DNA of 64,000 nucleotides from Bilabrum cf. latius (taxonomy: Eukaryota): the NCBI GenBank assembly GCA_965178125.1, contig OZ237745.1:558001-622000 (forward strand), in the 5' to 3' direction. A program made the translations under genes and the position numbers. Below are positions 3,183-58,987 of this stretch, one piece after another (positions within the stretch are counted from its first letter, which is position 1; the number at the start of each line of letters is the position of its first letter). Below the pieces are notes generated by a model. It searched no databases, was not told the DNA's origin, and saw nothing but the letters and a program-made list of their open reading frames with translations.

Positions 3183-5103
3183 ATGGCCGCTGCCTCTGGA
3201 TCTGCCGACCTTACCTTTGAGAAGTATGATGTTAGTTTTTGTAGTCTTAGCGATGCGGTCACAAGGTTTCGCGGCTGTCACAGATCGCACAGCTCGGGAT
3301 GTGCTCATGATGTGTGATGCTCGACTTGTTGTTTCGTCCTTATAATTCGCAGTTCCTGAAAGAGTTGGGCATCACTGGTTCAAATGGTGGTGTGTATGAC
3401 GGTAAGACCTGCATGCGTAGTCGTTTAGTCGAAGTACTGCCTGCTGAGCTGGTTCCCTTCCGAGTGTTCCCGCGCTTTCCAACTGGATCGCGCGGGAACT
3501 GCATCGATTGCGGTCCCGGCGCGAGGATACTATGTCCATTCGCGCAGTTCAATGTGTTAATAAGCTTGCAACACTCCGCCATTCCTCCCACACTCCTCCC
3601 AATGCGCTCCCCGCAGGCGAGTGGAAGGGCTCCGGTGGCGCGGTCACCTCCATGAACCCCGCGACTGGCGAGGCCGTAGCCACGGTGGCGCAGGGTACTG
3701 CTGACGAGTACAAGTCGTGCCGCGCGGCCATGGACGCCGCGAAGAAGGACTGGGCCGAGATGCCGGCCCCCAAGCGCGGCGAGATCGTGCGCCAGATCTC
3801 GAACGCGATCCGCGACAAGATCGAGCCCCTGGGCAAGATCATCTCCCTGGAGATGGGCAAGATCCAGGCGGAAGGAATCGGCGAGGTGCAGGAGATCGTG
3901 GACATGTGCGACATGGCTGTCGGTCTCTCCCGGTCCATCAACGGGCAGGTGATCCCCAGCGAGCGCGAGGGGCACACCATCCTCGAGCAGTGGAACCCCC
4001 TCGGCCACGTGGCCGTCATCTCCGCCTTCAACTTTCCCATGGCCGTGCTGGGCTGGAACATGGCCCTGTCCATGATCTGCGGCAACTGCACGCTGTGGAA
4101 GGGTGCGCCCTCCACCTCGCTGTGCTCTGTGGCACTCACGAGGGTCATCGCCGACGTGCTCAAGAAGAACGACATCCACCCCGGCGTGTTTGTTCTCTGC
4201 CAGGGCGACGCTGACGTCGGCGAGATGATCACGGCGGACCCTGGGATCCCCCTGGTGTCCTTCACTGGGTCCTCGCAGGTGGGCCGCAGAGTCAGCGAGG
4301 TGGTGCACGGCCGATTCGGGCGCACCATCCTCGAGTGCTCCGGCAACGCCGCGGTGATCGTGATGCCCTCCGCCAACATGGACCTGGCTCTCAGGGCCGT
4401 TCTGTTCGGGTCCGTGGGCACTGCCGGCTAGCGGTGCACCACCTCGAGGCGGCTCCTCGTGCACGAGGCCGTGTACGACGAGTTCGTGAGCAAGCTGGCC
4501 AAGTCCTACGGGAGCGTGCCTGCGGGCAACCCCCTGGAGGAGGGCACCCTCCTGGGCCCCGTGCACTGCGAGCGGGCGGTGAAGGAGTACGAGGCCGCGG
4601 TCAAGGAGGCCACCGAGGAGGGCGGCAAGGTGCTCGTCGGCGGCAAGCGCATGGACAGGGCGGGGTACTACGTGGAGCCCACCATCGTGGAGATGTCCTC
4701 GTGCAAGGCCGAGAGCATGAAGGAGGAGGCCTTCGTGCCCGTGCTGTACGTGGCCAAGGTAAAGTCCCTGGAGGAGGCCATCGAGGCCAACAACTCGGTC
4801 AAGCAGGGCCTCAGCTCAGCCCTCTTCAGCACCGACATGAGGGAGGTGTTCAAGTGGGTGGGGCCCTCGGGGTCTGACTGCGGACTCGTCAACGTGAATG
4901 CGGGCTCCTCGGGCGCCGAGATCGGCGGGGCGTTCGGAGGAGAGAAGGAGACTGGCGGGGGGCGCGAGAGCGGCTCCAACGCCTGGCAGCAGTACATGCG
5001 CCGGTCCACCTGCACCATCAACTTCACAGACAACCTGCCGCTTGCGCAGGGCATCAAGTTCGGTGGAGGTGACGACGATGCGGCCGCTGGGGGAGGCAAG
5101 TGA
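3183..5103 (+). CDS. ALDH7A1: Aldehyde dehydrogenase family 7 (antiquitin / alpha-aminoadipic semialdehyde dehydrogenase)
   Basis: Exons 3183-3230, 3353-3401 and 3617-5103. Motifs LTFEKYDFLKELG, ISAFNFP, SFTGS, catalytic loop VGTAG[TAG 4429-4431]RCTT, and [22 protein letters not shown]. Ends TGA. Confidence 0.97.
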
Positions 5104-5354
5104 GACCGGTCCAATCTGATTTCTGGCACGTCCCGAGCGTGTCGGGCAGTGCACAACCAAAACGGACATTTTAGCCGACGATCGGCACGGTAGGCTAGAG
5201 CTCATTCTCACTAATCACTGTGACACCAACAATCCCACGTCAATCTGCCAGCGCGCGAGTACGACTAGACTACGCCGCGATCGGCTTCGTCTGATCCGGA
5301 GCCGTTGGGCAATAGCCCAGTGGATTGCCCATGTGCATGTGTGCAGACGCCGCC

Positions 5355-6052
5355 ATGCCAGTGCGTTTAGCAGAAGCATACCAACCAGGCCGAAGAAGTC
5401 AAGAAGGGAAAGTGAGGCGTGGTAGGCGTCGTGCGCTGCCGCTTAAGCCCCCACCGCTGCGTCTCTGGTCGCTGTGCCCAATTGTGTCTGCTGCATGCGA
5501 GGCATGCATATAGGGGACCTATCAACCGATCGCTTTCTTTCCCACCTCGAGTGCCTGCCTTGCACCCAGATGCAGAGGACCCCGTTTTACCCCACGCTCG
5601 ACAGTGGGGGTCTGGGCATGGTCGAGCTGATCCGCAGCTATCTGCCGGCAAGGAGAGTCAAAGCGCTTCTTTGGAGGACTACGTGCGAGGCCAGGGGATA
5701 TGCGAGCATGGTATCCACGGCTGTAGCGGAGTGCAGCCCCCTGGAGCTGGCCAGGAGGCTCAGGCTGGGCAAGCTGGTGGGCGGGCTCAGCCGCCGGGCT
5801 GTCCCGAAGAGGTAGAGTGGACTGCGGGGGCTCCAAGGTCAGCAAGAGCCTACTGGAAGCAGTAAGGCACGGGAGGCAACTGATGTGCGTGATATTGCCA
5901 CAAGAAGTAGCAGATTGATGCGCCTGTGCGCCTGTGGGGCCGACGGTGTGGCCCGGCGGCGCCGCGCGGACTCTGTTGCGGAACGCTTTGGCCGATCCGA
6001 TTGGTTAAATCTTCAAGAAGTACAAAGCATTCTAAACATATTAGTAGTTTGA
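5355..6052 (+). CDS. Hypothetical protein (probably spliced at the 5' end)
   Basis: The frame of ORF 5474-5815 continues through TAG 5813 to TGA 6050-6052. Kozak-like gccgccATG at 5355 is followed by a possible intron. No recognised domain. Confidence 0.4.
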
Positions 6053-6123
6053 ATACAGCGCTTTCATCCTGCAATCGACTTGTAGGCTGTATCATAACCA
6101 GTGGTATTGCGTAGACTAGTGGA

Positions 6124-11396: not shown

Positions 11397-11598
11397 GTTG
11401 ATGCCGTCGAGCTTTTATATCTTCTGGTCTGGTGGCACTTATTCGTCGGTTGGTGAGTGAGAGCAGCTGCCGGAGCTATTTCTCCGGCACCGACGGCTGG
11501 CTGTTCCGGCATTGCCGTTACTGATGATGGACTCAGCACAGCTGGTGCTCGATCCGTTGACGGCAGATCACAGAATCTTTCAACTTGACGCCATGCAA

Positions 11599-13164
11599 TT
11601 ACATGAACATCCGCTGCATCCCAGCCGCGTACGCCATCGGACGGATAGGCGGATGGGACACGGCGCTGAACTGAGTAAACGTGGGCTTGCAGTCCTCGTC
11701 AAGGTGCACGATGGCCCCCTTGTTCCCCATCTGGTCGCAGTAGTTGGGCGCGCTGAACACCGTGATGCACTGGCCCCCGTGCTCCACCAGATACCCCTCG
11801 TCCTTCACCTCGTGGGATCGGATCAGCAGCTCCAGCCCGTTCGCCTCTAGGAAGGCCTTGGTGACGTCGGGCCCGAACTGCTTGCCAACCCCGCGCTTGG
11901 AAGGACCCCTTCCTGGGAACGGCTGCGGATCCGCCCACATGATGTCGCTCATGATGCCCCCGCCTTCCGGAGACTCCCTGAACCGATTGGTCTTCTCAAT
12001 GTCGGCTAAGGTCACGCCGTCCTCCGCAAAAATGCCCCCGTGCACCACCAGCACCTTGCCGCCGATGCATGCAGCCAGGGGCAGCTGCTGGAAGAGCGAC
12101 AGGAACAGCTCCATCACGTCCTTGTCGTACTTGTGCACCACCTCGCCCTGAAAGCCATACACCTGGGTCATCTGCTTCGACTCGTGGTTCCCCCGCAGCA
12201 TGTGGAAGTGCTCAGGGAGGGCCAGCTTGAAGCTGAGCAGAGCCAGGATGTTCTCCACGCTGAAGGAGCCTCTATCCACGTAGTCTCCGTTGAAGAGGTA
12301 GGGGTTGCCCGTGGAAGGCTTCCCGTTGATCTTGAACAGCTCGAGCAGGTCGTAGTACTGTCCGTGAGTGTCGCCGCACACGTTGAACCGCTTCTTGCCC
12401 TTGATCTTAGACTCGACCAGCGCCTCCTCGCCCTCCTCCCGCTTGCCCTCGCTGGCATCCCCGCCGCTGGCCGAGCTAGGGTGATCGATCCTGATCAGCG
12501 TGGGAAGGTCATGGAGCAATTTGTATGCCTGCTGCAAGATCTGCACCACGTAGCGCCTGTGCAGGTTCTTCTGCTTGCGCTGGTACTCCAGCAGCTCGTC
12601 CACGAATTCGAGGGTCACAGTCCCGTCGTCCGGAAGCCTTGGTCCATCGTAGGACGATGGGACCGCATCTGGTTCCTTCGAGGCCAATTTTTCAAACACA
12701 TCCATTGTGTGCTCCGTTCGGATGGCCTTCTCAAAGGCTGCGCGCTTAACTTGCTTGTCCGCCTCCGCCAGCCGTTCCTTGGCATCAGCATCCCCTGGAA
12801 TCCTCGCAACAACTGCACGGAAGCACTTGCGTGCATCCTTATACTTTGCAAGGGCCAAGTATGCAGAACCTTTGCGGTAATAAGCTTTCAAGTAGCCCGC
12901 GTCAAGGGCTAATGCGCAGTCTGCATCGGCTATCGCGCTCCCGAATGCCTCGAGCTTTAGGTTACACATGGATCGGTTCCCGTATACAGGGGCCGTTGGC
13001 TTAGCATCAATCGACTTGGAATAGCACTCAATTGCTTGCTGGAAATGGCCCTCTTTGTACAGCGAATTGCCTTTGCCCTTCCATTCCATCGCGAGGTCGC
13101 TACTAGTTTCGCTCACTGCTGCTGGTGCAGCAGGTGAGCCGCTAGACCCAGCTATAGATGCCAT
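11599..13164 (-). CDS. PPP5C: Serine/threonine protein phosphatase 5 (TPR + PPP catalytic domain)
   Basis: N-terminal TPRs; GDTHGQ, GDYVDRG, RGNHE and SAPNYC motifs; C-terminal HPPIRPMAYA. Ends TAA at the expected C-terminus. No in-frame TAG. Confidence 0.97.
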   Translation of the reverse strand: MASIAGSSGSPAAPAAVSETSSDLAMEWKGKGNSLYKEGHFQQAIECYSKSIDAKPTAPVYGNRSMCNLKLEAFGSAIADADCALALDAGYLKAYYRKGSAYLALAKYKDARKCFRAVVARIPGDADAKERLAEADKQVKRAAFEKAIRTEHTMDVFEKLASKEPDAVPSSYDGPRLPDDGTVTLEFVDELLEYQRKQKNLHRRYVVQILQQAYKLLHDLPTLIRIDHPSSASGGDASEGKREEGEEALVESKIKGKKRFNVCGDTHGQYYDLLELFKINGKPSTGNPYLFNGDYVDRGSFSVENILALLSFKLALPEHFHMLRGNHESKQMTQVYGFQGEVVHKYDKDVMELFLSLFQQLPLAACIGGKVLVVHGGIFAEDGVTLADIEKTNRFRESPEGGGIMSDIMWADPQPFPGRGPSKRGVGKQFGPDVTKAFLEANGLELLIRSHEVKDEGYLVEHGGQCITVFSAPNYCDQMGNKGAIVHLDEDCKPTFTQFSAVSHPPIRPMAYAAGMQRMFM

Positions 13165-19352: not shown

Positions 19353-22300
19353 TCAACCAACAACCACCCCATCTAGCACGAACTTGGGCACGAAGCAGTG
19401 CAGCACCTCGCTCGGAAGGGCGAGCACCTCGCAGATGTGCACGAGCAGCATCGCGAGGACGCCCACCTCGTCCGGCAGCTGCCCAGGGTTGCGACCGGTA
19501 AGACTCGCGTGCGTGATGGAGCGCAAGTGCTGCCCCAAGTACCCAAGAAACTTCGACGTGTTCCGGGGGTGCAGCTGCCGCAGCACCGTGGCAAGCCCCA
19601 CGGCCATCGCATACCCGTCCGTGCCCCCCGCCGGGGACTGGGCCGCCAGCGAGCCGAAGTCAGGGTCGTGCCGCAGTGCGGGCGCCTCCCGAATGGTCAG
19701 CACGGCAAGGAACAGAGGGAAGAGGGGCTGCGGCTCCACCAGCAGGTAGATCTTCTCGCAGGGGTCCGCCAGCCCAGAGGCCTGCAGGTGCCTCGAGAGC
19801 TCGGGCAGAAGCGGGGAGGACGGGTCCGGGTACGGCTTCTCCTCGCTTCTGTGGTAGTGCTGCCTCACGTCGCTGATTACCGCACCGCTGAGGGCAGAGA
19901 GGGATCCGTGGAGCAGCTTGGAATCCAGCCGTGCAGCGAACCTCAGCTCGTGAGCCAGCCTCCTCCGTACCAGCTGCAGCTGGCCCACCTCTAGAAGATA
20001 CTGCCGCATGGGCTGCAACCAGCCCCCCAGCTCGCCCCCTAGTTGGTCGAACGCCGAGTGCCCCGCGGGCACCAGCTTGCTCAGCGGCTCCAGCTCCTTG
20101 GCCACCTACCTGAGCATCGCCCTGCCACGGGCAGGCACCGCCCCACGCATGGCCAGGCTCCCGTCACCGGCGTACGTCTGCACGGCCATGGAAAGCACCC
20201 GTGCCACGCGGAAAGCCACCACCCTGTCGACCGCAGCCACCCCCGCCACGCCCAGGCCCTCCCGCAAGGAGGCGAAGGCCCTCAGGCCCGCCCTCTCCGT
20301 GCCGTCTCGCAGGAACCAGCCAGCGTGGTTTGGGGAGAAGGTCGTCCGGTCGTACCGAGTCATGTCCATGAGCGTCGTCACCACGCGGCCCAGGAAATTG
20401 GTCCCGCCAACCGGTCCCCTCGGGCTGCCTGCCCCCGCGGCGGCTCCCTTCTTCGGGTCGGCTGCGGGTGCGACGGCTCTGGAGACCAAGAAGGGGATCG
20501 GCACTGCCTCCGACTGGAACCGGCTGTCCCTGGGAGCCACCTTCTTCCGCAAGTATCGGTTGGCTTCCTGTTCCGCGTAGTACGACATGATTCTGGCGAA
20601 CTCCTGCTGCCACAGGTGCAGCCCCTTGATCCCGATAAAGTCCTAAATGTACTCGAAAGAGGACCGAAGCCCATCCAGCCGCTGCTTGGCCTGTGCGAGG
20701 CACTCCATCAGCGGCGGCGCCGGCGGAACCGGGTCTGCTTCCCCGGCACCCGAGGAGGCCCCCCGCTTGCTCTTGATGGGCTTGCCGTCAGGGCCCAGTG
20801 GCGGTCCCACCGGGATGGCCAGCGGCAGCAGCGCCGCATCCAAGGCCTTGCACACGTGGATGACCAGCTGCTTGCGCACGCCGTCGTTGAGGATGCGCCT
20901 CGGCTTCACGCGGATGATCCCGAGGAGGGTCTCCTCCTGCGCCAGCACGCCCTGCGTGAACACGCTGATCTCGTGCGTGAGCAGGGCCAGGTTGTACCTG
21001 AGCCTCGGCTGGGCCACCTTGGGCAGGTCATCCAGCTCCAGCCGCGCCGGCAACACCTTCATGTGCTCCGTCTGCAGGGCCACCACCCGCCTGAGCTTCT
21101 CAAACACGGTGATGGGGACGATGTCCATGACCTTGCGCAGGAACACCACCAGCTTGGTGCTGTAGTGCTGCGCCACGGAAGGCGCATCAGGCGAGTCAGA
21201 CTCGGTGACCCTCACCAGCGGCACGTCCAGCACGCTAGCCAGCTTGAGGAACGTGGCCCTGAGCTTGTCCACCGCTCCGGGATCCTTCTAGATGCGCCTG
21301 TGCATGAGGGGGATGAATTCGCCCATGACCCCCCACGCGTAGGCAAGGTCGGCCACCACCATGAGGTGCTGCATCTGGTGCTCCTTCACGTTGAGCAGCC
21401 GGATCAGCTGCTCCAACTCTGCCCGGATGACCCTCAGGTACTCCATGCAGGTGGTGGACGTTTCCACCGCCTCCATCTCCTCCACGTCGGTCAGGCCCCG
21501 GATCAGCCTCTGGATCTTGCGGCCCGCCAGGGTAGGATCGTCGAAGTTGAGCGCCGCCACGCGAGCCGCCTGCTCCGAGAAATGCTCCTGCAGCTCCTCG
21601 TCCTCCTCCACACGCCGCAGCCCGGACGTGCCACTGAAGTGCAGCGACAAGTCATTCAGCATGTCCTCGCAACGGGCTTGCCCAGCCGCCCACCGTTCCT
21701 GCCTCGAGTCCAGCAGCTGCCTCATCAAACCCTTGAGCCTGAATTCCAGCGAGGCCGTGCGCAGCAGGAAGTCCAGCAGCTGCGGGGCCGTCGGACTGCT
21801 CTTGCGCACCACGTCCCGCAGCCCAGCAGAGGCCGTGTTGCGGTGCAGCAGGAACCACCGCAGCGACGTGTTGCACTTGCGGAGCGTCGTCATGATGACC
21901 GGGAGCTTCGCCGCGACAGTGGCCTCCGACAGCTCTCCCTCCGCCAAGAGTCCATCCAGCTCGGCGCTGCCTGCTAGTGCCTCCCCATGGTGAAGCCGTG
22001 CGAGTGCAAGGGCCCGCTTGGGGCCAAGGTCGGCCCCTTTCAAAGCGGCTACAGCCGCTGGGTAGGCCGCCCATTCGATGGTGAGGTCGATCGTGAGTCC
22101 CATGTACACGGGAATGACCCAGTTGTCTGCGAAGAACCTGTCGACGAGGGCGCGCATGGTGGGGACCTCGCTGTGGAGGGTGCGGGGGGCCAGGTACAGG
22201 CAGGCCCACACCATGCCGGCCTGCTGAGCCAGTGCGAATGACTGGTGCTCCGGCAGAGGGTAGGCTCTCTGCAGCTGGTAGACGTCGTCAGACCTCAGGC

Positions 22301-23108
22301 GACCCATAAGCTTGGCAATGATGGGCTTGGGCATGTCAAAGCGGGCAAAGTATGCCTCGGGGTACTCGGGCGGGCGCTTCTGAGCTCCAGGGCGGTACCC
22401 CGTGTCTCGGCACAGGAGCATCACGTCCTCGATGCTAGTCACGCTGCCCTCCCCCTTGAGCCTGTAGTGGGCCACCACGATGCGCTCGCGCACGGGTCCC
22501 GGAACCCTCCTATCTAACAAGATGAGCATCACACACATCATGAAGAATGCCTCGCACAACAGCTGCTTGCCGTCAGCATGCAGAAACACGCCCTCCGTTG
22601 TGTGCGAAATGTAGAATCCCCGATCAAGGTTGTCCAAATACTCCTTGAACTCGTCAATCCACCTATGTACCGCCTCAAACAGAAGGTAAAACCGTTCAAG
22701 CAGCGGCCCGTGGCTCTCGTTGCACTCGTCGTCAAGATCGCTGAACGCAGGATTGCGACTGACCTTCGTATCGTACATATCTGGCTCCTAAAAATATCGA
22801 AAGTCAAAGAGGATCTCCTAGAACTTTTGCACCTGGACCCTGTCCTCAGGCCGGCTCGCAAATTGGGCCAAGAAGGGAGAAGGGATCGCGTCGGCCAGCC
22901 GCGAAATTTCAGCGATGATGCTGGACGCCTGAGATACGAGTTGCAGCAGGGTCATACCGCACTAATTGTTAGGGGCCATCAGATCGGCCTCAGCCTCCTC
23001 ATCAATAAGCTTCAGTCTTCGACGGGCACGCTTGCGCTTTTCATCCGCAGAGCTATGCACGATGATTGCCGTTGACGAAGGGCCAGTTCCTGCTCCGGAC
23101 GCCGCCAT
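19353..23108 (-). CDS. WASHC5: Strumpellin, WASH complex subunit 5
   Basis: Motifs NN.CGMTLLQLVS, ILFDFRYF, GKQLLCEA, RERIVVAHYR, GRLRSDDVY, VDRFFADNWVIPVYMG, KLRATFLKLAS and SFEYI[TAG]DF. One frame through TAGs at 22962, 22818, 22788, 21288, 20643 and 20106. Ends TGA. Confidence 0.95.
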
Positions 23109-23514: not shown

Positions 23515-26500
23515 TCACAACATGCTATTAACGTGGTGGCGCATCGCTTCGATCGCATGATCTCTATCCTGCGTCGTTGCAAGCTGCCAATGCATTGTTT
23601 CCGAGCCCACGATGTACAAACACCTCGGAGCGTCGGCAGAGCTCCCAAACAGACGCCCAGAGTATACTGGCGGATTCCCTGCTCTAGCCTTGCTAGCTGC
23701 CCTCAGCCTTATCTTGTATGCTGCGGTAGCGTCAAGAAGGGCGGAGGCGGCGCGAACGGCTACAGTGCACGAGGCCCATGGCAGTTGACGGGAGCCGCTC
23801 TTGGCAACCAGTGGAGCAAGTGGGCAACACAGCAGCTTGTGATGGGGCAGGGCGCAGCAATAACACAGCTGGGGCAACAATACGATCAGTCTCACCTTGT
23901 TTTCCCTTCTTGCTTTCGTCAGGGGAGCACACAAGCTCGCTGCCGACGAGCTTGGCGATCCGCTTGTGGGGGGCACCGTCTGACGCCCACACAGTGACGT
24001 TGTGCCCGCCGCCTTTCAAATTCCTGAGCACAGCCTGCGCCCCCTTGGACAGCACGGTGCCTGCAACAGAGCCTCCACCCGCAGCAGCCATTGGGTTGGT
24101 GGCCTGCATCGTCTCGGCCGGCGCAGGCGACTCGGCAGCGCCGTTCGAAGCCTCTGCACCAGCGTCGCCGTCCTCAGCCGGCTCCACCCCAACGGCAGCC
24201 TTGATGGGCGGCACTGACGTCTGGGTCTTCCTGATTTCATCCACGATCTCTTTTGCTTTGTCGCACGTGCTGCGGTCGAAGAAGAACTCCCCGTTCTGGT
24301 GCACCTCCTCGTACCGCGTGTAGAGCAGCTGCATGGTCCCCGGGATTGAATCCGAGACCAGCTGGCTGCTGGCCTCGGGATCCTTAACAAGCACCTACAG
24401 GAGCCGCAGCAGCTGCTGCACCGCCTGCCGCCAGACGATCGGTTTGTCGAGGTCTTCTTTAGCGGCGTGCACGGCCTGCTCCGTGATCACTGCGGCGAGC
24501 CTGCGGGGCACCTTGGCGATGATAACGGCCTGCGGGTCCGTCTCGGCCATCGTGACCACGAACTGCGCCAGTGCAGCCACCATGTCCGTGTCCTCTGCAT
24601 TCACCTCCAGCAGCTGACCCACCAGTGGCGCGCAAAGCTCAGCAACCTGGTGCCCCAGCACCTGCCTGTCCATCTCAGACCAGCCGTTCAGTACGGAGAG
24701 AGCAATGGTCAGGAACTCGGGGTCTGCCATATGCTGCCTCGCCACGTCGATCAGGGTGTTGACGCTCTGCATCTCCTTGGCAGCCTCCACGATCTCGGGG
24801 CCCTGGCCCAGCATGAGCACGGACAGGCACGTGACGGCCAGCCGAGAGTTCTCCGCCCCTGCGCCTCGGTGGGCCTCCACCGCGGAGAGGAGCACTTGGG
24901 GCGCCCCCGAGCCCATCACGATCTGCCTGGCCCCCTCCACCTCAAGCGCCGCCCCCAGCACCCGGGCACCTCTCCGCAGCAGCTCGATGTTGTAGTCAAA
25001 TCCTCGCATGACCCGCAGCACATGCGGGATAGCTCCCAGATCCCTGACAAGCACGCCGATCAGCTCCCTCGATGCGCCAAGGTAGTGCAGCGCCTTGAGG
25101 CACGCGATGAGAAGATCCTCGTCTCGCGTGTCGCTCTGCATGACATCCAAGAGGCACCGGGCGGCCCCTCCCTTGACCAGCATCGTGTTGAGCGCCACCT
25201 GAAGGGACCCGGGTTTCTTGGGATCCACCTGGCTCGCGGCCGCCTTCATGCTCTCTAGGGTGGCCTTGCTGTCAGGGTCCATGCCAGCGCCCTTGGCCTT
25301 GGCCTTGGCCTCGATGGCAGCCACGCTGTCGTTGAGGATCCGGAGCCCCTCCGAGGCAGCGACGTTGCGCTCGTCTACTGTGGCCAGGTTGCTGATCACG
25401 TCGGCGCCCAGCTTGACGAGGTCTGCCCGCTCGAAGTTGGACCGGAGGCCCTTGATGATCCCCGATATGGACCCGGCCGCAACCACCCTGACGATGTTCT
25501 CGTCCAGCCTGGTCGTGTTCCCCAGCACACGCAGGGCCATGGAGAACAGGTGCGTGTCCAGGTAGAACCTCCTAAGGATGATCACGACTTCGGTGGAGCA
25601 CTACCGGCCCACCTCCAGCTGCACCTTCTCCGAGACGTACGCGAGGTTGGACAACAGGCAGAGCGAGTCCTCCAGCAGCCGGGGGTCCTTGTGGTGCCTG
25701 GCCATCAGTCGAGCCGTCACGCCAACCCCGTCCAGAGACAGGAACTCGCTCCCCGCGCTGCTGCCGGAACCCTGCTCCTCGTCACAGGCGATGTTGGCTA
25801 GGGCCTGCACGCAGCTCTTGGCTATCCTCGGCTCCATCTTGTTCTTCACAGAGGCCCCCGGCCCCGTGTGCCGCACCTCGAGCTGGTCCACCTCGGCTGG
25901 AAGGTGCTCAGGGAGCCAAGATAAGGTGGCACCAGCCGCGGTTGTGCGCACATCCCCGTGCGCCTTGACGATGCCGAGCAGGCACCCGGTCGCGCCGGCG
26001 TGGGCAGCCGCTCGCGTGTGCTCCTGCTCGAAGGAGAGAGGAAGCACCAGCTCAGCGATAGCTTCGCACGCACGCTGACTCTCGGGATGCATGTTGGCAA
26101 GGGTAATGACACGGGCGATGCCGTCGATCCTGTGCAATGCGTCCACATTCTCCGACTTGGCGCACAACCGAGCCAGCGCAGAGATTGCCATCTCGACCAC
26201 ACCAACATCGTCCCTTCGCACCTCGCCCATCGTGAGCAGCCCCTCGATCGCGTGTGCGGGGCACTCGGTCACTGCTTCGTCGTCCAGCATTCTGGTAATC
26301 TTGTGCATCTCCCACAGCTTGTCCAGCAGCGCGGCCAGCTCCTCAGGCGCGTCCCACTGCGCCTCATCCGAATCTGGCGTGCTGTAGTATGTGGCCCCCC
26401 ACGTATCTGGATCGTCGTCTTCTCGATCGCGGAAGCGACCCATGCCTTTGGCAGCTTCACCAGCCTCAAGCGCAGCCAGGATCTTCTCGATGAACCCAGT

Positions 26501-29500
26501 GCCGCTCTGCTCTGAGAACACCTCGCCCAGCTTGTTTAGCAGCAGCCCGCTCAGGCGACCTATGGTGGGATCTGCGCTGCCATGGCTCTTGGCGAGGCTC
26601 TGCAGCGCAAGCATGCTCATTCTGTCCAGCTTGAGGGTATCCACGCCGCCCTCTCCTGCGCGCTCCAGGCTCCTCCACAGCACCTCCAGGGCAGCCTTGG
26701 AGGCGCCGTGAGCCCCCGTGTTTGGCATGCGGGCGGCCGCCTGCGCCAGGGACCGGAACAGATCAAGGGCACCAAGCGCCTTGACCCGCTCGTCGATCAC
26801 CGACTGGGCACCATCCGAAGAGGCCTCGGGCGCGGCATCCACCGAAACCTCGCCGCTCTCGCCATCCACTGAGGTCTGCAATCCCACCATCTTGCCGATG
26901 GCAGACACGCAATCGGCCTTGAGGCTGGCCCCCTGCTGCTGCGCGCGCTTGGCTGCTGCAACAGCGGCGGCATCAATATCGTCCTCATCCTGCTGCTGCT
27001 GCTCCTCGACCCTCTACGTGCCGATGGCAGTGGCAGTGTCCACAGCCTGCAGCGAGCTTGGCGCAGCAAGCACCTCACTAAGAGCGTACACTGCCTGCGA
27101 GGAACACAGCAACTTCTGCCTGCGACCACCCTCACTGACCTCGATTGGAGCCCCCGCGGCGCCTTCCCCGTCGGACACTGCCCGGTACGAATCTCCGCAG
27201 ACGGCTTCTAGGCGCTCCTCCACATCGCCATCGTCTTCTTCGTCATCAGCGTCGCCGAGCGTATCGGTTTGCGCTAGGAGCCTGACGGCAAGGTTTCGCA
27301 CGGCACACGCGTTGCTGCGGACGGCGGGCTGCACGTTGAGGGCCTCCTGCTGCTTTGCAAGTCGCATTGCATTGCGCTGCACCTCGTCCTGGTCCCCCGA
27401 TACCTGCACTGCCGCTGACCAGTGTCCCTGCGATGGCTCTGCCTTCCCGCCAGCGTACACGATTGCCTCCGTCCGAGCCAGCGCACCAACCAGGGGAAGA
27501 AGCCTGGCGGACGAACCGACCGTGGACGTTCCGGCCTCTTCTAGCCCGCAGATGCTTTGCAGCACCGCATTGGTTGCAACTAGTCGGGCGCGCAGGCCCT
27601 CTCTGGTCTGGCTCTCGCCCATGTCGGCGGATCCCGCATCAGAAGGCGACTAGCACATCTTCTGCAGGCCAGCAAGCTTCACCCCGCCCTGCAGCTAGGC
27701 GCCCGTCGCCCTCTCTGCGTGCGACGATGCGGGGTCTAGCTCCCCAACACACGTCTCGATAGCTCGCCATGCCGCAATATTACCCTAATTCGCCTGTCCC
27801 GCTACCAGCCGAGCAGCTCGCGCCACTTCCTCGGGCACTTCAGCCACAGCCACGCCCTTCACGTCGGCCTCCGCAGGCTCTGCGGAGCCCCCGCCGTCGG
27901 ATGCCACCGCTGCACACACCACGATATCTGAGAGACACTTTGCGTTGCCTAGCACGCCCGCCTTCTCTTCCTCGTTGCCGTCACCCTCCACGATAGACAC
28001 GCCTGCTCTTGAGAACTGGCGCAGCGTGGCATTCACTGCCTTCTGAATGCGGAGCGCGGCGATGCGCGACAGCCCACTGCCGGCATCCCGAGTGCCGCGC
28101 CTGCCCTTGCCACCCGCGGCTCCACCTTCCCCGTCCTGAAGCGCGAATGCAGCCACCCTGGCGGTTCGTGCGAGGGTGCTGCCAACACTCTGCGACGAGA
28201 ACTGCTCGACCGCATCAAACTTTCTGGTCGAGTTGAGAGCTGCGTTCAGGCAGCCGCACGCACTCTCAACCACCGGGGCATCCAGCGTGCCCAGCGCGAC
28301 AATCTGCCGCGCCGTCTGCACAACCTGCTCCGGCTTGACGTCCTGCTCCTCGTCAAGCTCCCACGTCTCAGATTGGCCCTCGTAGTAGGCCGCCAGCTTG
28401 GCGTCGAACTGCGCCGACACGATGTCTGAGAGCCTGCCCATCACCTGCACAGCCACGCCCAGCACCTTGCGACGCAGGGCTCCACTCTGCTCAGTGTAGT
28501 ACTCCCGGTACTGCTCGTCGCCCGCCTCGAGGGCCTCGATGGCCGAGGGATCGGCTGCAGACGCCAAGGCCACCGCCTGCTCGACTGCCTGGAACACGCC
28601 CACGTTAGTCGCCCCCTCCAGCCCCTCGGCGGGGTCTGCAGTGGCAATGACGGCGGAGAGACCCCTTAGCGCCTGCTCAGCCGTCTCGAGGGCGGTGTGC
28701 ACCTCCTCCAGCGTGGAGGCATCCTCACCGTCCTCGCCTGCCACGACCCGGACGCCCTCAAGCGCGGATTCTACCTGCCCCACCAGCTCTGCAGATCGCG
28801 TGTCCTGGATCTCAAGCGCCTTGAGAGCCCCTCGCGCGGCCACCAGCACCCCGCTTGATGCGGTGGACGAAGTCAGCGCCAGCTAGATTGCCTCGGATGC
28901 ACCGGCCTCGTTTGCCACCTCCGCATTTCGGGCAGCCACCCATGTAGGGAGCACCTCGTTTTCGGCGCACACGTCGCCCAGGAGCTCAAGCACCGCCTGC
29001 GTGCACCTAGCTGTGTCGGTGTAGCCCGTGCTAGACTGCACCGTGGTCACCACGCGCCGCAGGACAGCCCTAGCCTCACCAACCTTTTCGCCCTCCGGCT
29101 TGTCAGCCGAGCTGTACGACTCGCCCACTACTGGATACGCCTGCATGAGCCTAGGGAGGATGCGGGCAGTGGCCGTGAGAACGGCCTCGTTCGGGTCGTA
29201 CGGGTCAGAGCAGCTCCTCTGCAGGGCCAGCCGGAGGTCGCCCAGAATGCTCCCACCGGAGACGGACGCAAGCGTGTCGTCGTCCGAAAGGGTAAGCCTG
29301 GCGAGCAGCTGGATTGCGAGGGGTAGCAGGGTCTATGCCACGGTGCTGCTGCCGCTCTCCTGCGCAAAGTCGCCCACGATTTGAGTAGCCAGACGAGCTG
29401 CCCCTGCTGCTGAGCACAGAGCTGCGCTCTCGTCGCCCCCTCTCGCCACATTTGACAGCGAGGCAACCGCCCCTGTCATCGTGTCCAGCTCAAGCGTGTC

Positions 29501-32500
29501 TGTGGCCTGCTGCAGCACCCCGCACACGATCTCCACGCCGCGACCGTCAGCCGCACTCGTCACAGCCTCGGCGGCCTTTGGTGCCTGCGACAGCTCTGCG
29601 AGGCACATGGCCGCTTGCTGGTTCGCGTCACTGGCGTGCTGCATGGTATTGACCACCTCGGCAGCAGCATGCACCACTACGTCCGGCAGCGGAATGGCCT
29701 GCGCGTCGTCCGACTCGACTTCGGCGTCCTCCGGCGGCAGCTCGTCCATGGGATCCGTGAAGGGCTGCCTGGCCGTGGGATTCTCGGCCGCCAAGGCGTT
29801 CTTGAGGCCCACGGTGCACGTCCTGAGTGCCTCCAGCGCGGGGCCGATTGAGGCCGCCAGCTCGCCAGCCACGCTGTCCGAGGGCGCTTCGACGCCCGCG
29901 AGCCCGGCGTGTGCTGCATTCGCGGTGCGCACTGCCGCCAGGAGGCCGTGCATGGCCTCTTCGAACGCGCTGGACCCCATCTGCGTGGCACGGATGGAAC
30001 CTTCGCTGAGCGCCAGCGTGATCTTTCTCAGCTGGTGGCGCAGCTCCCCGGGGCGGAATCCGTCCAGCGACAGGCCAAGCAGCGCCCCGGCTACGTCCCC
30101 GCCGGCAGCGACAGCAGCATCCACAGCCCTCTCCATGTCGGCTGCCACCATTGCCACGCTGCCGATCACGTTGCTGACCTCCTGCCGAGTCAGCAGGCGG
30201 GCCAACAGGTCGGACAGCGTGGCTCGAATCGAAGCGATGGTTTCATCCACGGGAATATACTTGACACCGGCAGTGGCCCCGGCAGCCCCTGCACCAGTGG
30301 CGTCGCCGTCGCCACCCGCCCCGCTGCCCTTCGACTTGCCCTTCTTCTTCTTCTTCTTGCCCTTGCCAGAGCTGCTGCCGCCGCCGCTGCCGCTAGACGG
30401 GTCGGATCCGCTGGAATGCTGCGCCACGGTGCCCCCGCCCGAGTTGGCAGCGAGCACCTTGGACTGCACAGCTGCGTCGCAGTCCACAGCGGTGTCGCTG
30501 AGTCCCTGCCTCCTCAGCACGCCGACTGCCTCCATGGACTGGTCAGCGCACTCCTAAAGGACCCCCAGGGCAGCGAGCAGCAGGTCGTCCGCTCGCTGCT
30601 GCGGGGCTCCTCCCAGCCTCTCCATCGTGCGCTGCAGCTGTCGGCCAGCGCCCCGGGTCGCCACAGCCAGCGCACCGCGCGGCGAGATGGATATTCGCAG
30701 CAGCGTCTCGATAGCAGCTTCGGACACGTGCACCGCCTGGTCCGTCAGCCCGCTGTGCAGCCGGAGGACCGTCGAGCACGCCTCCACCACCCCTCCGTTC
30801 ACGAGGGACTCCACCCTGGCGGCCTGCGTGTGGGGGTCAAACGCAAAAGCGAGCCACTGCAGGGCGCGAAGCGCAGCCTCCGCGAACGTGTCGATGGAGC
30901 CACGCCCCTGCAGCGCAGCGCACACCATGTGGCCGACGTGCTTGGAAAAGATCAAGTCGGCCGCCCCAGTCTCACGCAGCGCGTCCAACTCCTCCGCAGA
31001 AGCAGAGGACTCCTCCGGGTCACCGTAGGCCTCCATCACCACCCGAGCCAGCGTTGACACGCACTTGCACGTCCTGGCTAGTGCTTCGTCCCTGACGCCC
31101 ACAAGCACAGCTCGCTTGGACTCGGTCTGGGCCAGCAGTGCCTGCTTCGCCACCCTGCCCATGCCCTCGGTGGAGGGTCCTGAGTCCTGCACCGTGTCCA
31201 CCGCGCCCAGGGCACCCATGGCGTGTATCAGAGAGCCCACGGCACCCTCCACCAGGGCCACGCCTGCCAGCCAGGGAGAGACGCTGATGGCCTCGAGCAG
31301 CGACAGGCTGGCCAGCAACAGGTCGCTCGTCTCCGACAGGCCGCCATCCTGCAGCCTCTTCCGCAGCTTGGTACCGCCTTCAGATACCTCGTCCGATTCG
31401 CCCGCCAACTTGTCCAGCGCCGCGACCGATACGTCGCCCGATTCGTCCGTGCCCAACACATGCCGCATGGCCTCCAGCGCTCTGCGCTCGAGGTCGGGGG
31501 CTTGCAGGTCGGCCTGGCCCCTGAGCACAGCAGCACAAATGTTCACTTGTAGCACGGCAGCGATTACTTCGCTGTCCGAGATCTGGAGCGCCTCGATCAC
31601 CTCCCTAAATCGCTCGTACACAGCGCTGGAGCGAGGGAAGCGCGCAAAGGCCAGCAGCACGGCCCGGATGCACCCGCTGTGCTTGGCCTCTACGAGCGCC
31701 TCCTGCTTCTCGCACACGGTGGCCAGCAGAAACATGGCCAGCACAACCAGCTGCTCCCCCGACACCGTACCACCGGATGACCCGCCGGTGGATTTGGAGG
31801 AGGACCCTTTGCCTTTCGCCGCGGCCCTGCCCCCAGACCTGCCCTTCTCGCCAGCGCCGCTCAGATCGGCAATCAGGACGGGCAGCAGCCCGGCCCCCAG
31901 CGCTGCATCCAGCACGCCAGCAGATCCGATGGCGGCGTTCAGCAGGGCCAGCGCTTTGCAGTGCAGCGCTAGCACAGAGGGGTTGTGGCCCATGGCCTCT
32001 GCGGCCGTAGCGGCGGCCTGCTCCAGCCCCACCTCCGATACTGCGCCCCCGTGGACCAGGAGGTGCTCCAAGAGGGACAGCACGGCCCCGGCAGCATCGG
32101 AGGAGGAGGCATGCGTCTTGAGCGATAGCAGCAGCATGGCCTCCATGACCGTCTGCCCCTCCGAGGGCGAGACCTCCTCGATCTCGTAAGGAGGGTCTGC
32201 CCCAAGGAGGCCCACAGCGCCTGCCTGGTCGCCCACCAGCGCCTCGAGTGCACGTGCCGCCTCTCCCGCGTGCTTGGCCGACTCGAAGTCAACGGACATT
32301 TCGCCTAGGATGTGCGTGGGCGCGCCCTCTTCGAGACACCTGTCCTGCCCCGCCTGCGATGACGCAGCCACCCGGCGCACGACCTCCACAAGGGCCAGCC
32401 TGGCCCTGGCTTCGACGCACGTGGACACGAGCTGCATGAGCTGTGCCAGCATGCTGTCCATGCCCTCAGGGAGCGACGAGGCTCCTTTCGTGGCGGCCTT

Positions 32501-33782
32501 GTCCTCGTCATCGTCCGAGGGATCCACAGGGCCCGCACTCATCACACTGTCCACGGTCTCCGCGTCGCGACACAGGGAGGCCAGCAGCCTCGCGGATCGC
32601 GCGCAGGACTCTAGGCCCGCCTCACTCCCATTCGAGGCCCGACCCACGTCCAGCACGAGCCCACGCAGGTTGCCACGAAGCAGCCGGCTCAGCAGCCGCA
32701 CCACAACCGCCTCCAGCGTCTCATCCGCTGACACAGCGTCCAGCGAGCCGGACAGCAGCCCCACCACATCTGGGATGGCGTCCAGAAGCGCGAGCCCGGC
32801 TTCTGTCCGACTCACCCGGTCCAGCAACCTGAATGCCGGGGCCATGTGCCGCGCGCCAGGCGCGAGCAGCTCGCCACTCTGCTGCTGCTGGGTAGCGGCC
32901 CCACCTGCAACGAATGGATCCGCCGCGCCACCACCCCCACGACCCGCGCCTGACGCCGGCCCGGCAGATGCCTATGCGGCGGCAGCATCCGTCTCCAGCC
33001 AGGCGCCGGCTGCATGTGCGACCGTGTGGATGAAGTCGGTGCCGTCTGCCGTAAGCGTCTCCTGCCCCCGGCGAGAGCGACCGATGAGGTCCAAGAGACC
33101 CAGGGCAGCGGCAGCGGCGCGCGGCAGCGGCCTATCCCCCGCCGCCTCGCCGCACGAGCAGGCCCGGCTAGCGATCTCTGCGAGCATAGGGACAGTGTCC
33201 AGGGCCACAAATCGCTCCACGTCCTGCTTCGCGACGGCCTGCAGCATGGATAGGGCCGTGGCCATGCCGTCTTCCAGCTCCGCGGCGTCATCGGCTGATG
33301 GTACGCTGCTGGAGGCCGAAGCCCAGTGCTTCCGGACAGCCTTGACGAGCAGCTCGGCCGTGCCGCCAGCGGCGATCCGGCCGGGCATGCGTGGCAAGGT
33401 GACCAGCGCGGCGGACGATGACATGCACATTCCGAAAATGTCCACATCGGCCGGGTGCTTCTTCACAACGTCGGCCATCGCGTCGATGCCGCCCTTCTCG
33501 AAAGCTTCCCGCGCGTGCACTTCCCACCCAACACGAGGTGGGGTGATCACCTTCACCAAACACTGCGGCCAAAAAGTCCAAAATATCATGCGAAGTAACG
33601 ATGCAGTCCTGCTTTGTCGAGCTTCATGAGCGTAGTGCAGACGGTAGCAGACCCAAACGCCTCCTCACCTGGATGGAATAGCTGGCCAAGGCCTTGAATT
33701 TCACATTCTTCCTGACATCTTGCACCAAACGCGCTACATTAGACGAGCTTCTGCCTCCACGCGCCCCTCTTCTGCCAGACAT
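23515..33782 (-). CDS. Giant (~3,328 aa) ARM-repeat protein with a degenerate WW-like motif and a C-terminal PH-like domain
   Basis: Exons 33782-33669, 33562-23896 and 23720-23515 (total 9,987 nt, divisible by 3). The 9.7-kb exon has no in-frame TAA or TGA but 10 TAGs (32972, 30554, 29333, 28883, 27785, 27695, 27650, 27014, 25601, 24395). Ends TGA. Confidence 0.8.
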
Positions 33783-49414: not shown

Positions 49415-52400
49415 ATGGCTACTTCGTTGGCGCGCCAAGTTGCATAGCTGCGAGATGGCAGGAGGCGCAAAGGCGAGGCATCTGTCCTGTTCACTCGTCA
49501 AGAGGCAGAGAATTACAATCTTACCTCGATACACGAAATTGGACTTAATGGACTCTCAGAGCTGTGTGGACTCAACCCAGCATTCTATGAATTTCAGTCC
49601 ACCTTGTTCGGCAGGAGCCTACTCGACAAAGACAGGGAACTCCTTGATTCGGCAGAGATTAGCAAGATCTCTGCCATAATCGACAAGTTTCTTCATTTGT
49701 TGTCTCCTTATTTTGCAACAAGGCCCGCCCAGAAGGCATTAGAATTCCTAGTCAGGCATTTCAAGTGAGTTCCATGTTGAAGGTCTGGGCGCTGCTCCCG
49801 CCGTGCCATCGAATGCCTCTTGATGCCCATGCTCAGTAACGAAGCACGCCACAACGTCTTTTGTTCCACTTTCGTATTGCAGGGTGCAAGAGTTCCATGT
49901 AGACTCGCTGTTGTCATGCGCCTTACCAGCTCACGACACGAGGTTTTTTGCAAGGATTGCAAACCTTGCCCCCTTGAAGAATACGCGGTGGCAGTTCCTG
50001 GCTAGAATATCTCGGACCGGAAGCCCTCTCCCAAGAGCGGTGCTTGCGCTACAGTGCGTTAAGGACCCTTCAGTGTTGCAATTTGTGCTAGATTTGGCTA
50101 CCAACTAGGAGCGGAAGCCTCACCGAACAACCGTCTCCTTCGTGGCTGCCACTGCGCGAGATGCTCTAGCGAGGGCTTCACCAGAGCAGATGGAGCCAGT
50201 GCTAGCATCCGTGTCTCGCTGCATCGCGAAGACAAGCACCTCAGAGTCCGCAGAGGTCCGCGCTCTGTGCCTCGTTCTCATCGCCAGTGCGTCCTCTGCC
50301 GCGCGACTCTCCGAAGACACGATGGGCGCCCTCCTGAGGGCATGGACAGAGGTGGCTGCCAGGGCGACAGCAGCATCCTCCGCGGAGAAGTAGATGGAAT
50401 GCGCCGCGGCTCTGGCCAGCGCCCTGGCCTCGCAAGACGCGCTGGCGCTCAGGTCCAGGAGCAAGCGGGCTGCAAGGGCCGAGCCAGTGGGGCAGGCTGC
50501 GCTAGAGGGATTCGCGGCGGGGCAGCAGCACGCCGCTGCCCTGCCTAGTCTTCCGAAAAAGGCGGCTTCCAGCGGATCAGGAGCGAGCTCTGCATCCATG
50601 TCAGCCTCGTCCAATCGATTGAGGGCCACCGATGCGGCCGAGTACAGCGGTGCCATGGGGCGGTTTGCCTCCAGGGTGAGCAGCTTTACCTGGATAGGAG
50701 GCGCACTGCAGCACCTATCAAGAACCTCGGACGTGTCTGCTGTCGTGAGGCATGCGCTCGGGGACGCCGTTCAGGGCTTGGGCCACCGACCTGGCTAGGA
50801 AGAGGTGCTGGCCGGGCTCGTGAAGATGCTAGCCGGCGTGTCTGTATCCGATGCTATAGTTGCTGAGCTTATTGGTCTCGTAGTTGGTATGGCGAGCAGT
50901 CTGCTGCGTGGTAGTTCATCCGGCATCGCGCCTTCCTCTTCTGTGGGTGAGGATCTCGCCGCGCTTGGAGCCACTCTGCCGATGCTAGCTCTCCTGTCGC
51001 AAGCAGGGGCGCAGGTGTCGCTGCAGCTGTGCATGCGGCTTGTGCATCGCCAGGAAGAGGGCGTGCCAAAGGCGTTGCTCGACTGGATGCAAAATTATCT
51101 GAAGGCGAGTCCGTTGGCCCCCTTGCGAGCCGGCGTGCAGTCCGCGTCTGGCTCAGAATCGTCGACAAGCTACCTTGATGTCACCACGCTTCCATACGCG
51201 CTGACGAGCAGCGATGTACAGGTGCGTCTTGATGCTATCAAGAAGCTTGCCGAGCTGGTCGACGAGACGGTACAGCGCAGCGAAATAGCTGCAGCCGGCT
51301 CGGCTGCGATGACTGACAGTGAGGATGAGGAGGACAGCAAGAGAGGCGGCCCACATGGTAGCAGTGCCCGCACCCAGAGCAATTCATTCATGCGTAGCGC
51401 CGTGGCTTTGAGACAGTTTGACGAAGATGCTTCCGTTGCACGACAGGCGCTTGACCTTGAGACCAAGATGATCCTAGCTGGGGCGGGGCATGCGGCCGAT
51501 GTGCACGAGGCTGGAGTATCCATTGGGCAGCACGATATCGTGCTCGATGGCACGCCAGGCGTGGCTGTGTCAAGGTTCTCCAAGGTTGAGCAGTATTGGC
51601 AGAGAGTTGCAACATCGCAGGCCAGCAGTAGCGAGGAAGTTATTGCCGCCAATGAAGCGGTGTAGGCAAGCTTGCGTGCGTGCGGGGCAGTTGCTCGTTC
51701 CGCTGCAGATGCTGCCTCCAAGTCGATGGCAGTCATGGTCTTGCTGAATCACGTCCCCGTTGGCACAGAAACTCCATCTGTTGTTGATGCGGAGGCCCTA
51801 AAGCAGCTGGTTGCCGCCTCCTCGAGGTTCCCACCTCTGCGGTATCTCGCAGGTATTCCATCTGAATCCAGCTCAGACCTACCGAAGGTAAGATAGCGCA
51901 TACATTCCGTTTGCGTGGTTAAGTTGGCCTCGTGGTTGACAGCCTGGTTTCTGATGATTACACCCTAGTCTCGTTCGTCTGAGTTGGGGGCACAGACCCT
52001 CACGCCGAAGACAAACCCTAATATCGGAAATACTTTATGAAGAAAGCAGGCGGTCCATATTTGTTGCAAGATTGGAGCCAGTGCGTTATCTTGATGCTGT
52101 TACTACCACCAACGACTTTGTTGCCATCGTTCGAACATATCTCGCAGGATGTGGCAAAGCAGCTCGTGCGAGCGTGCTCGCGGGCAGCTTCGGAGCCAGC
52201 CGAACAGGGCCAGACTCTAGCCCTGCTCAAGGCAATGGGAGCCTCACCCTCGCCTCGCCTGCGCTGGATCAGCGCGCTCGTGTTTGTGGAGGGTATCCGA
52301 ATGGCTGGTGCGGCAGCAAACGCGCTGGCAGGATCGGCTGCGTCTATCATGTGGCCGCGCCCTATCGACGGTGAGGCGTCCTCCCGCAAGGCTGCCAGGA

Positions 52401-58400: not shown

Positions 58401-58987
58401 GAACGGTCGGAGTGCCGACGTCCAGGCACGGGCTTCGCTGCGCTGCGCTGGCCTTCTTGCAGCACCTGCTTGCCTTTGACTCCATGGGCTGGGTGGCGGG
58501 CGACAAGATGCGTCTAAGGATGATTGTGCGCAGCATTGCCGGCGCTTGGGCCCCGCCGTCATCGCGCAAGCGCGGTCTCGAGGATATCCTGGAGTCGTGT
58601 GCTTCCGACGCTGCCCAGCCCGCCGCGATGGCCGGTGGCCGGCGCGGACTGGCCTCGTACGGCGACCGGTATCTGCTCCCGGTTACCACAGCTATGGTCA
58701 AGTGCCTCTCAGGAGACTTGCAGTGGAAGCAAGTCAACCTCATGGTGCTCGAACACTCACATGACGAGCGGCCGGAGGTGCGCGAGCTGGCGATCAGATG
58801 CTCTCAGGTGGTGTTCGACGAGGCCGGGACGGATGACGTCATGGTTCTCATCCCGGAGACGTTGCCGTTTGTGGCCGAGGCCTTGGAGGATGAAGACGAA
58901 GCCGTAGAGGACTCGGCCAGGTCTCTGTTCAAGCGGCTTGAGGACCTCAGCGATGAGGATCTTGAGGACTTCATCAAGGGGAACTAA
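49415..58987 (+). CDS. UTP10: U3 snoRNA-associated protein 10 (HEATR1/BAP28), about 3,080 aa
   Basis: N-terminus MATSLARQVA[TAG]L...ASVLF...LSPYFATRPAQKALEFLVRHFK; C-terminus LIPETLPFVAEALEDEDEAVE. Intron 49765-49882 and a second about 51853-52049 (boundaries uncertain). Eleven TAGs (49445, 50106, 50391, 50796, 51663, 53267, 53588, 53657, 55721, 56354, 57257). Ends TAA. Confidence 0.92.

Follow-up and report, generated by a model that had tools for sequence, protein, structure and literature searches.

Does an in-frame TAG in the catalytic loop of an aldehyde dehydrogenase gene end the protein there, or is it read as an amino acid, and if so, as which one? The question is raised by a stretch of 64,000 nucleotides from Bilabrum cf. 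latius (GenBank assembly GCA_965178125.1, contig OZ237745.1, positions 558,001 to 622,000 of the forward strand), referred to here in its entirety as the window and numbered from its first letter. A preliminary description of this DNA, made from the letters alone, had placed a TAG inside the active-site loop VGTAGQRCTT of a gene of the ALDH7 family, and the string is indeed present: GTG GGC ACT GCC GGC TAG CGG TGC ACC ACC occupies positions 4414-4443 of the forward strand, with the TAG at 4429-4431, codon 300 of 523. The window is about 60% GC and carries long, nearly intron-free genes. I will argue that it very probably comes from the nuclear genome of a GC-rich eukaryote, one that uses UAG as a standard codon for glutamine and terminates translation at UAA and UGA.

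The frame in question, translated from 3532 to 5103 (523 codons), has this TAG as its sole internal stop and goes on for 223 codons to a TGA at 5101-5103, so that the downstream part, earlier put at some 220 residues, is intact as described. The product matches the Pfam family Aldedh (PF00171) with an E-value of 2.7e-128, residues 36-491 lying on positions 7-458 of the 461 in the profile. Its closest solved structures are those of maize ALDH7 (4pxn, E 3.9e-183), seabream antiquitin (2jg7, 5.5e-183) and human ALDH7A1 (4x0t, 2.2e-182). ALDH7 structures as a class are found at E-values of 1e-183 to 1e-176, and the next classes of ALDH, the succinate-semialdehyde and lactaldehyde dehydrogenases, at about 1e-63. 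Judged by these similarities, the protein is a member of the ALDH7 family (antiquitin, alpha-aminoadipic semialdehyde dehydrogenase) and not of another ALDH class. With TAG written as Q, the loop VGTAG-Q-RCTT of the query matches the structure sequences letter for letter in both printed alignments, and the segment 'ilecsgn' is aligned with 'llelsgn' of 4pxn (E-x-x-G-N). I take the cysteine of the loop (TGC, 4435-4437) to be the catalytic residue and the E-x-x-G-N segment to supply the general base, as is generally held for aldehyde dehydrogenases. The residue under the TAG was examined in the best 120 of 8,000 scored homologues, and is Q in all 120, as are the flanking G, R and C (each 120/120) what they are in the window; the near-invariance of a glutamine two residues ahead of the cysteine therefore stands as first stated.

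To define the gene and its transcript, Logan contigs of four public runs (X1, X5, X6 and X10), out of 24 runs listed, were compared with the ALDH7 region. Such contigs give the majority sequence only, and the DNA and RNA runs belong to different studies and bear different organism labels. The other 20 runs, many of them with word shares of 0.06 to 0.25 and carrying a range of organism and metagenome labels, are given no weight here as to habitat, host or distribution. The resulting features of the gene are the following:

3317..3401, forward strand: ALDH7 exon 1, beginning with the ATG at 3317 and encoding 28 residues; its last base opens the codon that follows.
3402..3616, forward strand: ALDH7 intron of 215 nt, GT..AG, with donor GTAAGACC and acceptor CTCCCCGCAG; DNA contig X1 contains it, and the RNA contigs X5, X6 and X10 lack it.
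3617..5103, forward strand: ALDH7 exon 2, which closes with the TGA stop at 5101-5103, supported by translation, Pfam and solved structures; GC content at third codon positions (GC3) 0.92.
4429..4431, forward strand: in-frame TAG, probably read as the Gln of VGTAGQRCTT; Q in 120/120 homologues, T in X1, X5 and X6, CAG in X10 and in the metagenome contigs L001 and L002.
4435..4437, forward strand: TGC, the presumed catalytic Cys two residues past the TAG; C in 120/120 homologues.

The three RNA contigs diverge from the genome just before 3616, and their 30-letter loose ends are identical to window positions 3371-3400. The ATG at 3317 is the only one in frame downstream of an upstream TGA, and the exon 1 peptide resembles the N-termini of ALDH7 homologues. 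The start implied earlier, the ATG at 3532, lies within the intron and hence is not the start of ALDH7. The TAG nonetheless remains codon 300 of 523 in the corrected model, because the discarded segment (3532-3616) has the same length as exon 1, 85 nt.

For a lone in-frame stop under the standard code, the default expectation would be a defect or artefact that concerns this gene only. It could be a mistake in assembly or sequencing, a nonsense allele or pseudogene, editing of the RNA, or programmed readthrough specific to this gene. The contigs bear directly on several of these. X1, which holds the intron and is therefore DNA (it may possibly be the source of the window), is identical to the window over 3500-5150 and has T at 4429. 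X5 (1,757 nt) and X6 (1,681 nt), from two other studies, provide one contig each, with no differences from the window over 3616-5150 and again T at 4429. Since these two run into exon 1 across the intron, they represent spliced mRNA that has kept the UAG; the spliced form of ALDH7 was not found in the DNA run X1. The only splice seen in the ALDH7 contigs is that of the upstream intron, 3402-3616. The contigs thus argue against an assembly error in which the true codon is CAG, and equally against editing or splicing at the TAG, the two ways in which the preliminary description thought its claim might fail; it had asked for raw reads, and the evidence here is that of contigs. Two proteins, P0002 and P0123, are identical (100%) and nearly 100% identical, respectively, to the part of the product encoded by exon 2 and have Q at residue 300, but they would look the same whether the codon was CAG or a TAG called as Q, and I do not count them as evidence.

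A comparison with relatives speaks to the same issue. X10, which bears another organism label, differs from the window at 62 substitution places over 3616-5122 (about 96% DNA identity). Among the 40 differences that were listed out of the 62, 39 are synonymous, 38 of them at third positions and one a change of CGG to AGG, and the fortieth is the T to C at 4429 that converts TAG to CAG. That all 39 are synonymous implies strong purifying selection on ALDH7, which speaks against a defect of this one gene. The metagenome contigs L001 and L002, identical where they overlap, carry an ALDH7 gene with 82.9% nucleotide identity to that of the window, also with CAG at the site, and in L001 the gene terminates in TAA. 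By parsimony, CAG would be the ancestral codon and TAG a recent acquisition of the lineage of the window. L001 has in-frame TAGs of its own elsewhere: two in a fragment of the phosphatase PP5 that aligns with residues 6 to 264 of human PP5 (E 1.6e-114), and two more in a homologue of the window gene at 8409-9425. For this reason the relative represented by L001, about 17% diverged in DNA, also reads TAG through. The order of genes in L001 (1-6227) is ALDH7, directly followed by the homologue of 8409-9425, and then PP5; the corresponding part of the window (3317-13164) has in addition a gene for a GxGYxYP-domain protein (6124-7905) between them.

The use of TAG as a sense codon extends to the rest of the window. 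When only TAA and TGA are taken as stops, open reading frames (ORFs) of 3,310, 2,321, 1,756 and 1,309 codons appear, containing 10, 6, 3 and 6 TAGs, respectively, and frames between 1,251 and 3,310 codons in length stay open only when TAG is read. Given these long ORFs, the TAG in ALDH7 is not a chance occurrence. Added together, the ORFs that reach 300 codons or more come to 17,446 codons under the standard code, 32,033 with TAG read, and 18,328 with TAA alone read. Fourteen gene segments, totaling 15,020 codons, contain 59 TAG, 524 CAG and 94 CAA, that is, 3.9 TAGs per 1,000 codons, or 8.7% of the sum of CAG, CAA and TAG. At least one TAG is present in 12 of the 14, and apart from that of ALDH7 there are 58, spread over 11 of the 13 other segments. 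Several of the proteins are recognizable: Pfam identifies strumpellin, PP5, YIF1, an ankyrin-JmjC protein, a GxGYxYP protein and an EGF protein, and a HEATR1/UTP10-like protein is recognized through solved structures. Those to which I will refer are as follows:

19356..23108, reverse strand: strumpellin (WASH complex subunit 5), 1,251 codons with 6 TAGs; Pfam Strumpellin positions 1-1083 of 1084, 1044 bits; TGA stop at 19353-19355.
20643-20645, reverse strand: TAG at strumpellin residue 822; the column is Q in 14/14 homologues.
59152..61179, reverse strand: secreted-type protein of 676 codons (g59152) with 4 TAGs; no Pfam family; TAA stop at 59149-59151.
60964-60966, reverse strand: TAG at g59152 residue 72; the column is Q in 121/126 homologues.
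23735..33664, reverse strand: ORF of 3,310 codons, encoding an armadillo-like giant protein, with 10 TAGs and without TAA or TGA; of the 4 TAG sites that relatives cover, 2 are Q in them.
11599..13164, reverse strand: PP5 phosphatase, without TAG, ending in TAA (11599-11601) at the conserved C-terminus, as judged by Pfam and alignment with human PP5.
52022..58987, forward strand: C-terminal part of the HEATR1/UTP10-like gene, with 6 TAGs; TAA stop at 58985-58987.

A defect or artefact of one gene would have to contend with the 58 other TAGs, with the T at 4429 shared by three runs that were assembled independently and come from three studies, two of which supply it as spliced mRNA, with the purely synonymous remainder of the listed X10 differences, and with the in-frame TAGs in the PP5 of a relative. 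I consider this explanation to have almost no chance of being correct.

Some observations on these genes may be noted in passing. The search for homologues of the 3,310-codon ORF gave 3 matches, which reach 4 of its 10 TAG sites, and GC3 is 0.56 in the last 50 codons as compared to 0.78 in the ORF as a whole, so that the true 3' end may lie upstream, owing to an intron or an earlier end. The HEATR1/UTP10-like gene appears as a pair of ORFs, 49824-52037 and 52022-58984 of the forward strand, which overlap but lie in different frames, with a likely GT..AG intron of about 260 nt (ccgaag|gtaaga near 51888 to tctcgcag|gatgtg near 52147); introns are therefore present in this DNA, though few and short. 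The protein g59152 has an N-terminus resembling a signal peptide and no Pfam family at E ≤0.01. It belongs to a large uncharacterised family, with 803 homologues at E ≤0.001 and 263 at ≤1e-30 in a representative library. A public fragment, P0159, is 100% identical to its residues 136-338 and stops one residue short of the TAG at 339. Strumpellin found no matches among solved structures, and its best named matches are from Paratrimastix (38%) and a pelagophyte (36%). The ankyrin-JmjC protein was considered as an informant on the identity of the TAG residue and set aside, since its matches to solved structures cover only ankyrin repeats, at variable repeat positions. Long low-complexity stretches rich in Ala, Gly, Ser and Glu occur in many proteins of the window. 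GC skew stays negative over the genes of the reverse strand, at about 14-34 kb and again at 43-47 kb, whereas over those of the forward strand (about 50-59 kb) it is positive, a pattern that suggests strand asymmetry linked to transcription.

Which amino acid is inserted can be judged from the residues that homologues have at the positions of the TAGs. Eleven TAG sites could be placed in homologue alignments, three of them in strongly conserved columns, and all three columns are Q: ALDH7 residue 300 (120/120), strumpellin 822 (14/14) and g59152 72 (121/126). Counting E, K, L, S and Y together, the column of g59152 72 has only one S and one L, and the other two conserved columns have none. The remaining eight sites fall in variable columns:

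Strumpellin residue 1001: Q is the commonest residue, in 4/14.
Strumpellin residue 607: Q in 2/14, with R dominant.
Strumpellin residue 97: Q in 1/13.
Strumpellin residue 49: no Q; L, P, I, V and E are found.
Strumpellin residue 107: no Q; K, S, R and N are found.
g59152 residue 38: Q in 12/104.
g59152 residue 339: Q in 2/145, with R in 63 and H in 61.
g59152 residue 376: Q in 6/144, with H in 74; the two closest relatives have Q.

Column frequencies (with a pseudocount) were compared to background frequencies and the log-odds summed over the 11 sites, as a simple score. Glutamine obtains +10.3, arginine, the next, -6.2, and histidine -8.0, placing arginine 16.5 natural-log units below glutamine. 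In a separate comparison, 16 TAG sites were set against the sense codons of close relatives, namely X10, L001 and three or four protein fragments that are 54-96% identical, and the residue of the relative opposite TAG is Q at 7 of the 16, with K next, at 3. The pattern is the one that glutamine should give: Q in columns under constraint and a scatter of residues in the others. At the level of sequence, then, the initial proposal that the TAG is translated, and translated as Gln, is upheld by the conserved columns, by the use of TAG as a sense codon throughout the window and by the CAG of the relatives.

One might suppose instead that UAG stands for Glu, Lys, Arg, His, Leu, Ser or Tyr, similar to the reassignments found elsewhere, to Leu in the rhizarian exLh, to Ser in Scotinosphaera and to Glu in some ciliates. 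Some columns would be in keeping with this, those led by residues other than Q: R and H at g59152 339, K and S at strumpellin 107, R at strumpellin 607. The K opposite TAG in three of the 16 comparisons points the same way, as does the active-site pattern of the ALDH superfamily, which permits either Q or E at the position of the TAG. The conserved columns, however, admit nothing but Q as their common residue, the nearest competitor is far behind in the summed log-odds, and TAG is exchanged for CAG in ALDH7 amid listed differences that are otherwise purely synonymous. Taken together, these make any amino acid other than glutamine very improbable.

Are the two remaining stop codons still stops? 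The first stop other than TAG is TGA in 8 of the 14 genes of the window and TAA in the other 6. Beyond the TAA, the frame closes within 3 to 64 codons, with a drop in GC3, in five of the six; in the sixth, g8409, it stays open for 89 codons, over which GC3 goes from 0.80 to 0.60. Two of the TAA codons stand at ends that can be located independently, that of PP5 at the C-terminus of the family and that of the HEATR1-like gene 4 codons past the residue aligned to position 2143 of the 2144 in human HEATR1. Neither TAA nor TGA occurs in frame in the full-length genes for ALDH7, PP5 and strumpellin. The ORFs were delimited by TAA and TGA, and counts of zero therefore arise partly by construction; the argument rests on the conserved ends and on full-length coverage. 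Within the window, by the evidence of these sequences, UAA and UGA continue to terminate and do not serve as sense codons. No gene among the 14 depends on TAG for its end, a count made from DNA only, to which context-dependent termination would be invisible.

That last qualification leads to the most serious of the alternatives, that UAG is ambiguous, specifying glutamine inside genes and serving, depending on context, as the terminator of some of them, as in Condylostoma, karyorelict ciliates, Blastocrithidia and Amoebophrya sp. ex K. veneficum. Codes of this kind are documented (PMC12005148, PMC5304391). Several ORFs have TAGs near their 3' ends, for example two within the last 90 codons of 14392-19659, and the fall of GC3 at the end of the 3,310-codon ORF may mean that its true end is upstream; DNA alone is compatible with termination of this sort. 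Set against this, no gene of the 14 requires it, and those conserved C-termini that can be placed (ALDH7, PP5 and HEATR1) reach TGA or TAA in 0 to 13 codons. Moreover, TAA is used by 6 of the 14 genes despite GC3 values of 0.62 to 0.92, as expected if TAG were unavailable as a stop. I regard an ambiguous UAG as unlikely, though less so than either of the explanations considered above.

Several results weigh against the view that UAG is simply glutamine. Eight of the 11 alignment sites are in variable columns, and at four of these (strumpellin 49 and 107, g59152 339 and 376) Q is absent or rare. The partner in the comparison with close relatives is a residue other than Q at 9 of the 16 sites (K three times; P, C, A, E, V and H once each), although several of these partners fall in poorly aligned or low-complexity stretches. 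The DNA and RNA contigs come from separate studies and organism labels, not from one strain, and 22 of the 62 differences of X10 are unlisted, the count of synonymous changes covering the 40 listed only. The freedom of the ORFs from TAA and TGA is in part a product of their definition, and DNA by itself is silent on whether UAG ends some genes. Finally, ARAGORN, run on the window and on four related loci (L001, L002, L012 and L013), found no tRNA genes, Rfam at its gathering thresholds gave no matches in the window, and eRF1 is not among the genes of the window.

With UAG as glutamine, the history of the ALDH7 codon may be reconstructed as follows. The TAG would be an ordinary Gln codon that arose from CAG by a recent C-to-T transition in the lineage of the window. 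The UAG is transcribed unchanged, and the predicted product is a full-length enzyme whose active-site loop has the usual G-Q-R-C. Decoding would fall to a tRNA-Gln with anticodon CUA, charged by glutaminyl-tRNA synthetase; CUA is proposed because it alone reads UAG while sparing UAA, and such a tRNA would be one mutation away from tRNA-Gln(CUG). The release factor eRF1 would presumably have lost its recognition of UAG, or had it weakened. The same combination of tRNA-Gln(CUA) and altered eRF1 has been proposed for Iotanema spirale (PMC5304391). Two gene segments of the window, 1450-2841 (reverse strand) and 34002-36857 (forward strand), have TAGs lying within runs of glutamine (QQQQXX and QQXQQ, where X is the TAG), as expected if CAG repeats mutate to TAG; this counts as a further pointer to glutamine.

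How does this code compare with those already known? The closest counterpart is that of Iotanema spirale (Fornicata), in which, by the account of Panek et al. 2017 (PMC5304391), UAG is Gln and UAA and UGA are stops, with a T32G change reported in eRF1. The table is the same, only UAG having gone to Gln and UAA remaining a terminator, and the same reasoning leads to a CUA anticodon. The differences are that Iotanema is an anaerobic metamonad represented by a transcriptome, whereas the window is genomic DNA of about 60% GC with no sequence affinity to a named lineage. Reassignment of UAG alone to Gln is also described for Protocruzia tuzeti and two phyllopharyngean lineages (PMC11687900). They too spare UAA, and the exact change has evidently arisen repeatedly. 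These organisms are ciliates; the window, a 64-kb portion of a multi-gene contig at about 60% GC, shows no sign of being from one, the best named ciliate ALDH7 being 58% identical.

Codes in which both UAA and UAG are Gln (UAR; NCBI table 6) are more widespread, occurring in many ciliates, hexamitid diplomonads, ulvophytes, Streblomastix and Amoeboaphelidium protococcarum (PMC5304391 and PMC11687900). They share with what is proposed for the window the passage from stop to Gln by a one-base change in the anticodon of a tRNA-Gln and by CAG-to-TAG transitions. They differ in that TAA in the window is the stop of 6 of the 14 genes, in two cases at a conserved C-terminus, and is not found in frame in ALDH7, PP5 or strumpellin. 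Amoeboaphelidium was set aside on this ground, since both of its UAR codons are reported to be Gln (PMC5304391) and TAA terminates in the window. Amoebophrya sp. ex K. veneficum, in which UAG is thought to be Gln, was rejected as well: its genome is presented as AT-rich, with all three stops translated (PMC12005148). UAG has also been separated from UAA, as it is here, in the rhizarian exLh, where it became Leu, and in Scotinosphaera, where it became Ser (PMC5304391 and PMC11687900); these two amino acids are almost absent from the conserved columns of the window. A formally identical table is reportedly used by TAG-recoded crAss-like phages (NCBI translation table 15, TAG = Q), which are phages of bacteria said to carry their own suppressor tRNA. 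The window differs from these in being, on the reading given here, part of a eukaryotic nuclear genome with spliceosomal introns.

The lineage itself is not easily placed. The best named matches of ALDH7 are at most 64% identical and scattered over Amoebozoa, Holomycota, corals, plants, an oomycete and a ciliate. In a FastTree phylogeny of 122 ALDH7 rows, the window groups with P0002/P0123 and with P0122, the nearest of the other rows lying at a path length of 0.86. By the accounts cited (PMC5304391, PMC11687900), UAG alone has been reassigned to Gln in no more than four or five lineages: Iotanema, Protocruzia and two groups of phyllopharyngean ciliates. The kind of change is already known, and rare. 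I found no report of a GC-rich eukaryote other than a ciliate with this reassignment in the full-text collection searched, which leaves most subscription journals and supplements outside its coverage. The lineage may be new for the code in which UAG is Gln. That it represents an independent and unreported origin of that code, with UAA and UGA as stops, in a GC-rich, intron-poor clade of protists that are neither ciliates nor metamonads, is a proposition to which I would give slightly less than an even chance.

If it is true, the clade would span at least about 17% DNA divergence, since the organism of L001 reads TAG through as well. The reassignment would also have to be efficient, new TAGs still being fixed at invariant catalytic positions, as in the change from CAG to TAG in ALDH7 after the split from a relative that is about 96% identical. 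The ALDH7 site amounts to a natural control in this respect, a recent CAG-to-TAG change two residues ahead of the catalytic Cys in a gene under strong purifying selection. There is a practical consequence for the genome as well: standard gene callers split the genes of this organism at TAG, as exemplified by P0159, leaving the public proteome fragmented and in need of being called again with TAG as Q. The predicted tRNA-Gln(CUA) and the changes in eRF1 could be found directly in this genome. Reassignments of stop codons in nuclear genomes are rare, and a further lineage, in this case a GC-rich one with long multi-gene contigs, unlike the AT-rich ciliates, would provide an independent data point on why the change of UAG to Gln recurs and on whether it needs AT pressure to do so.

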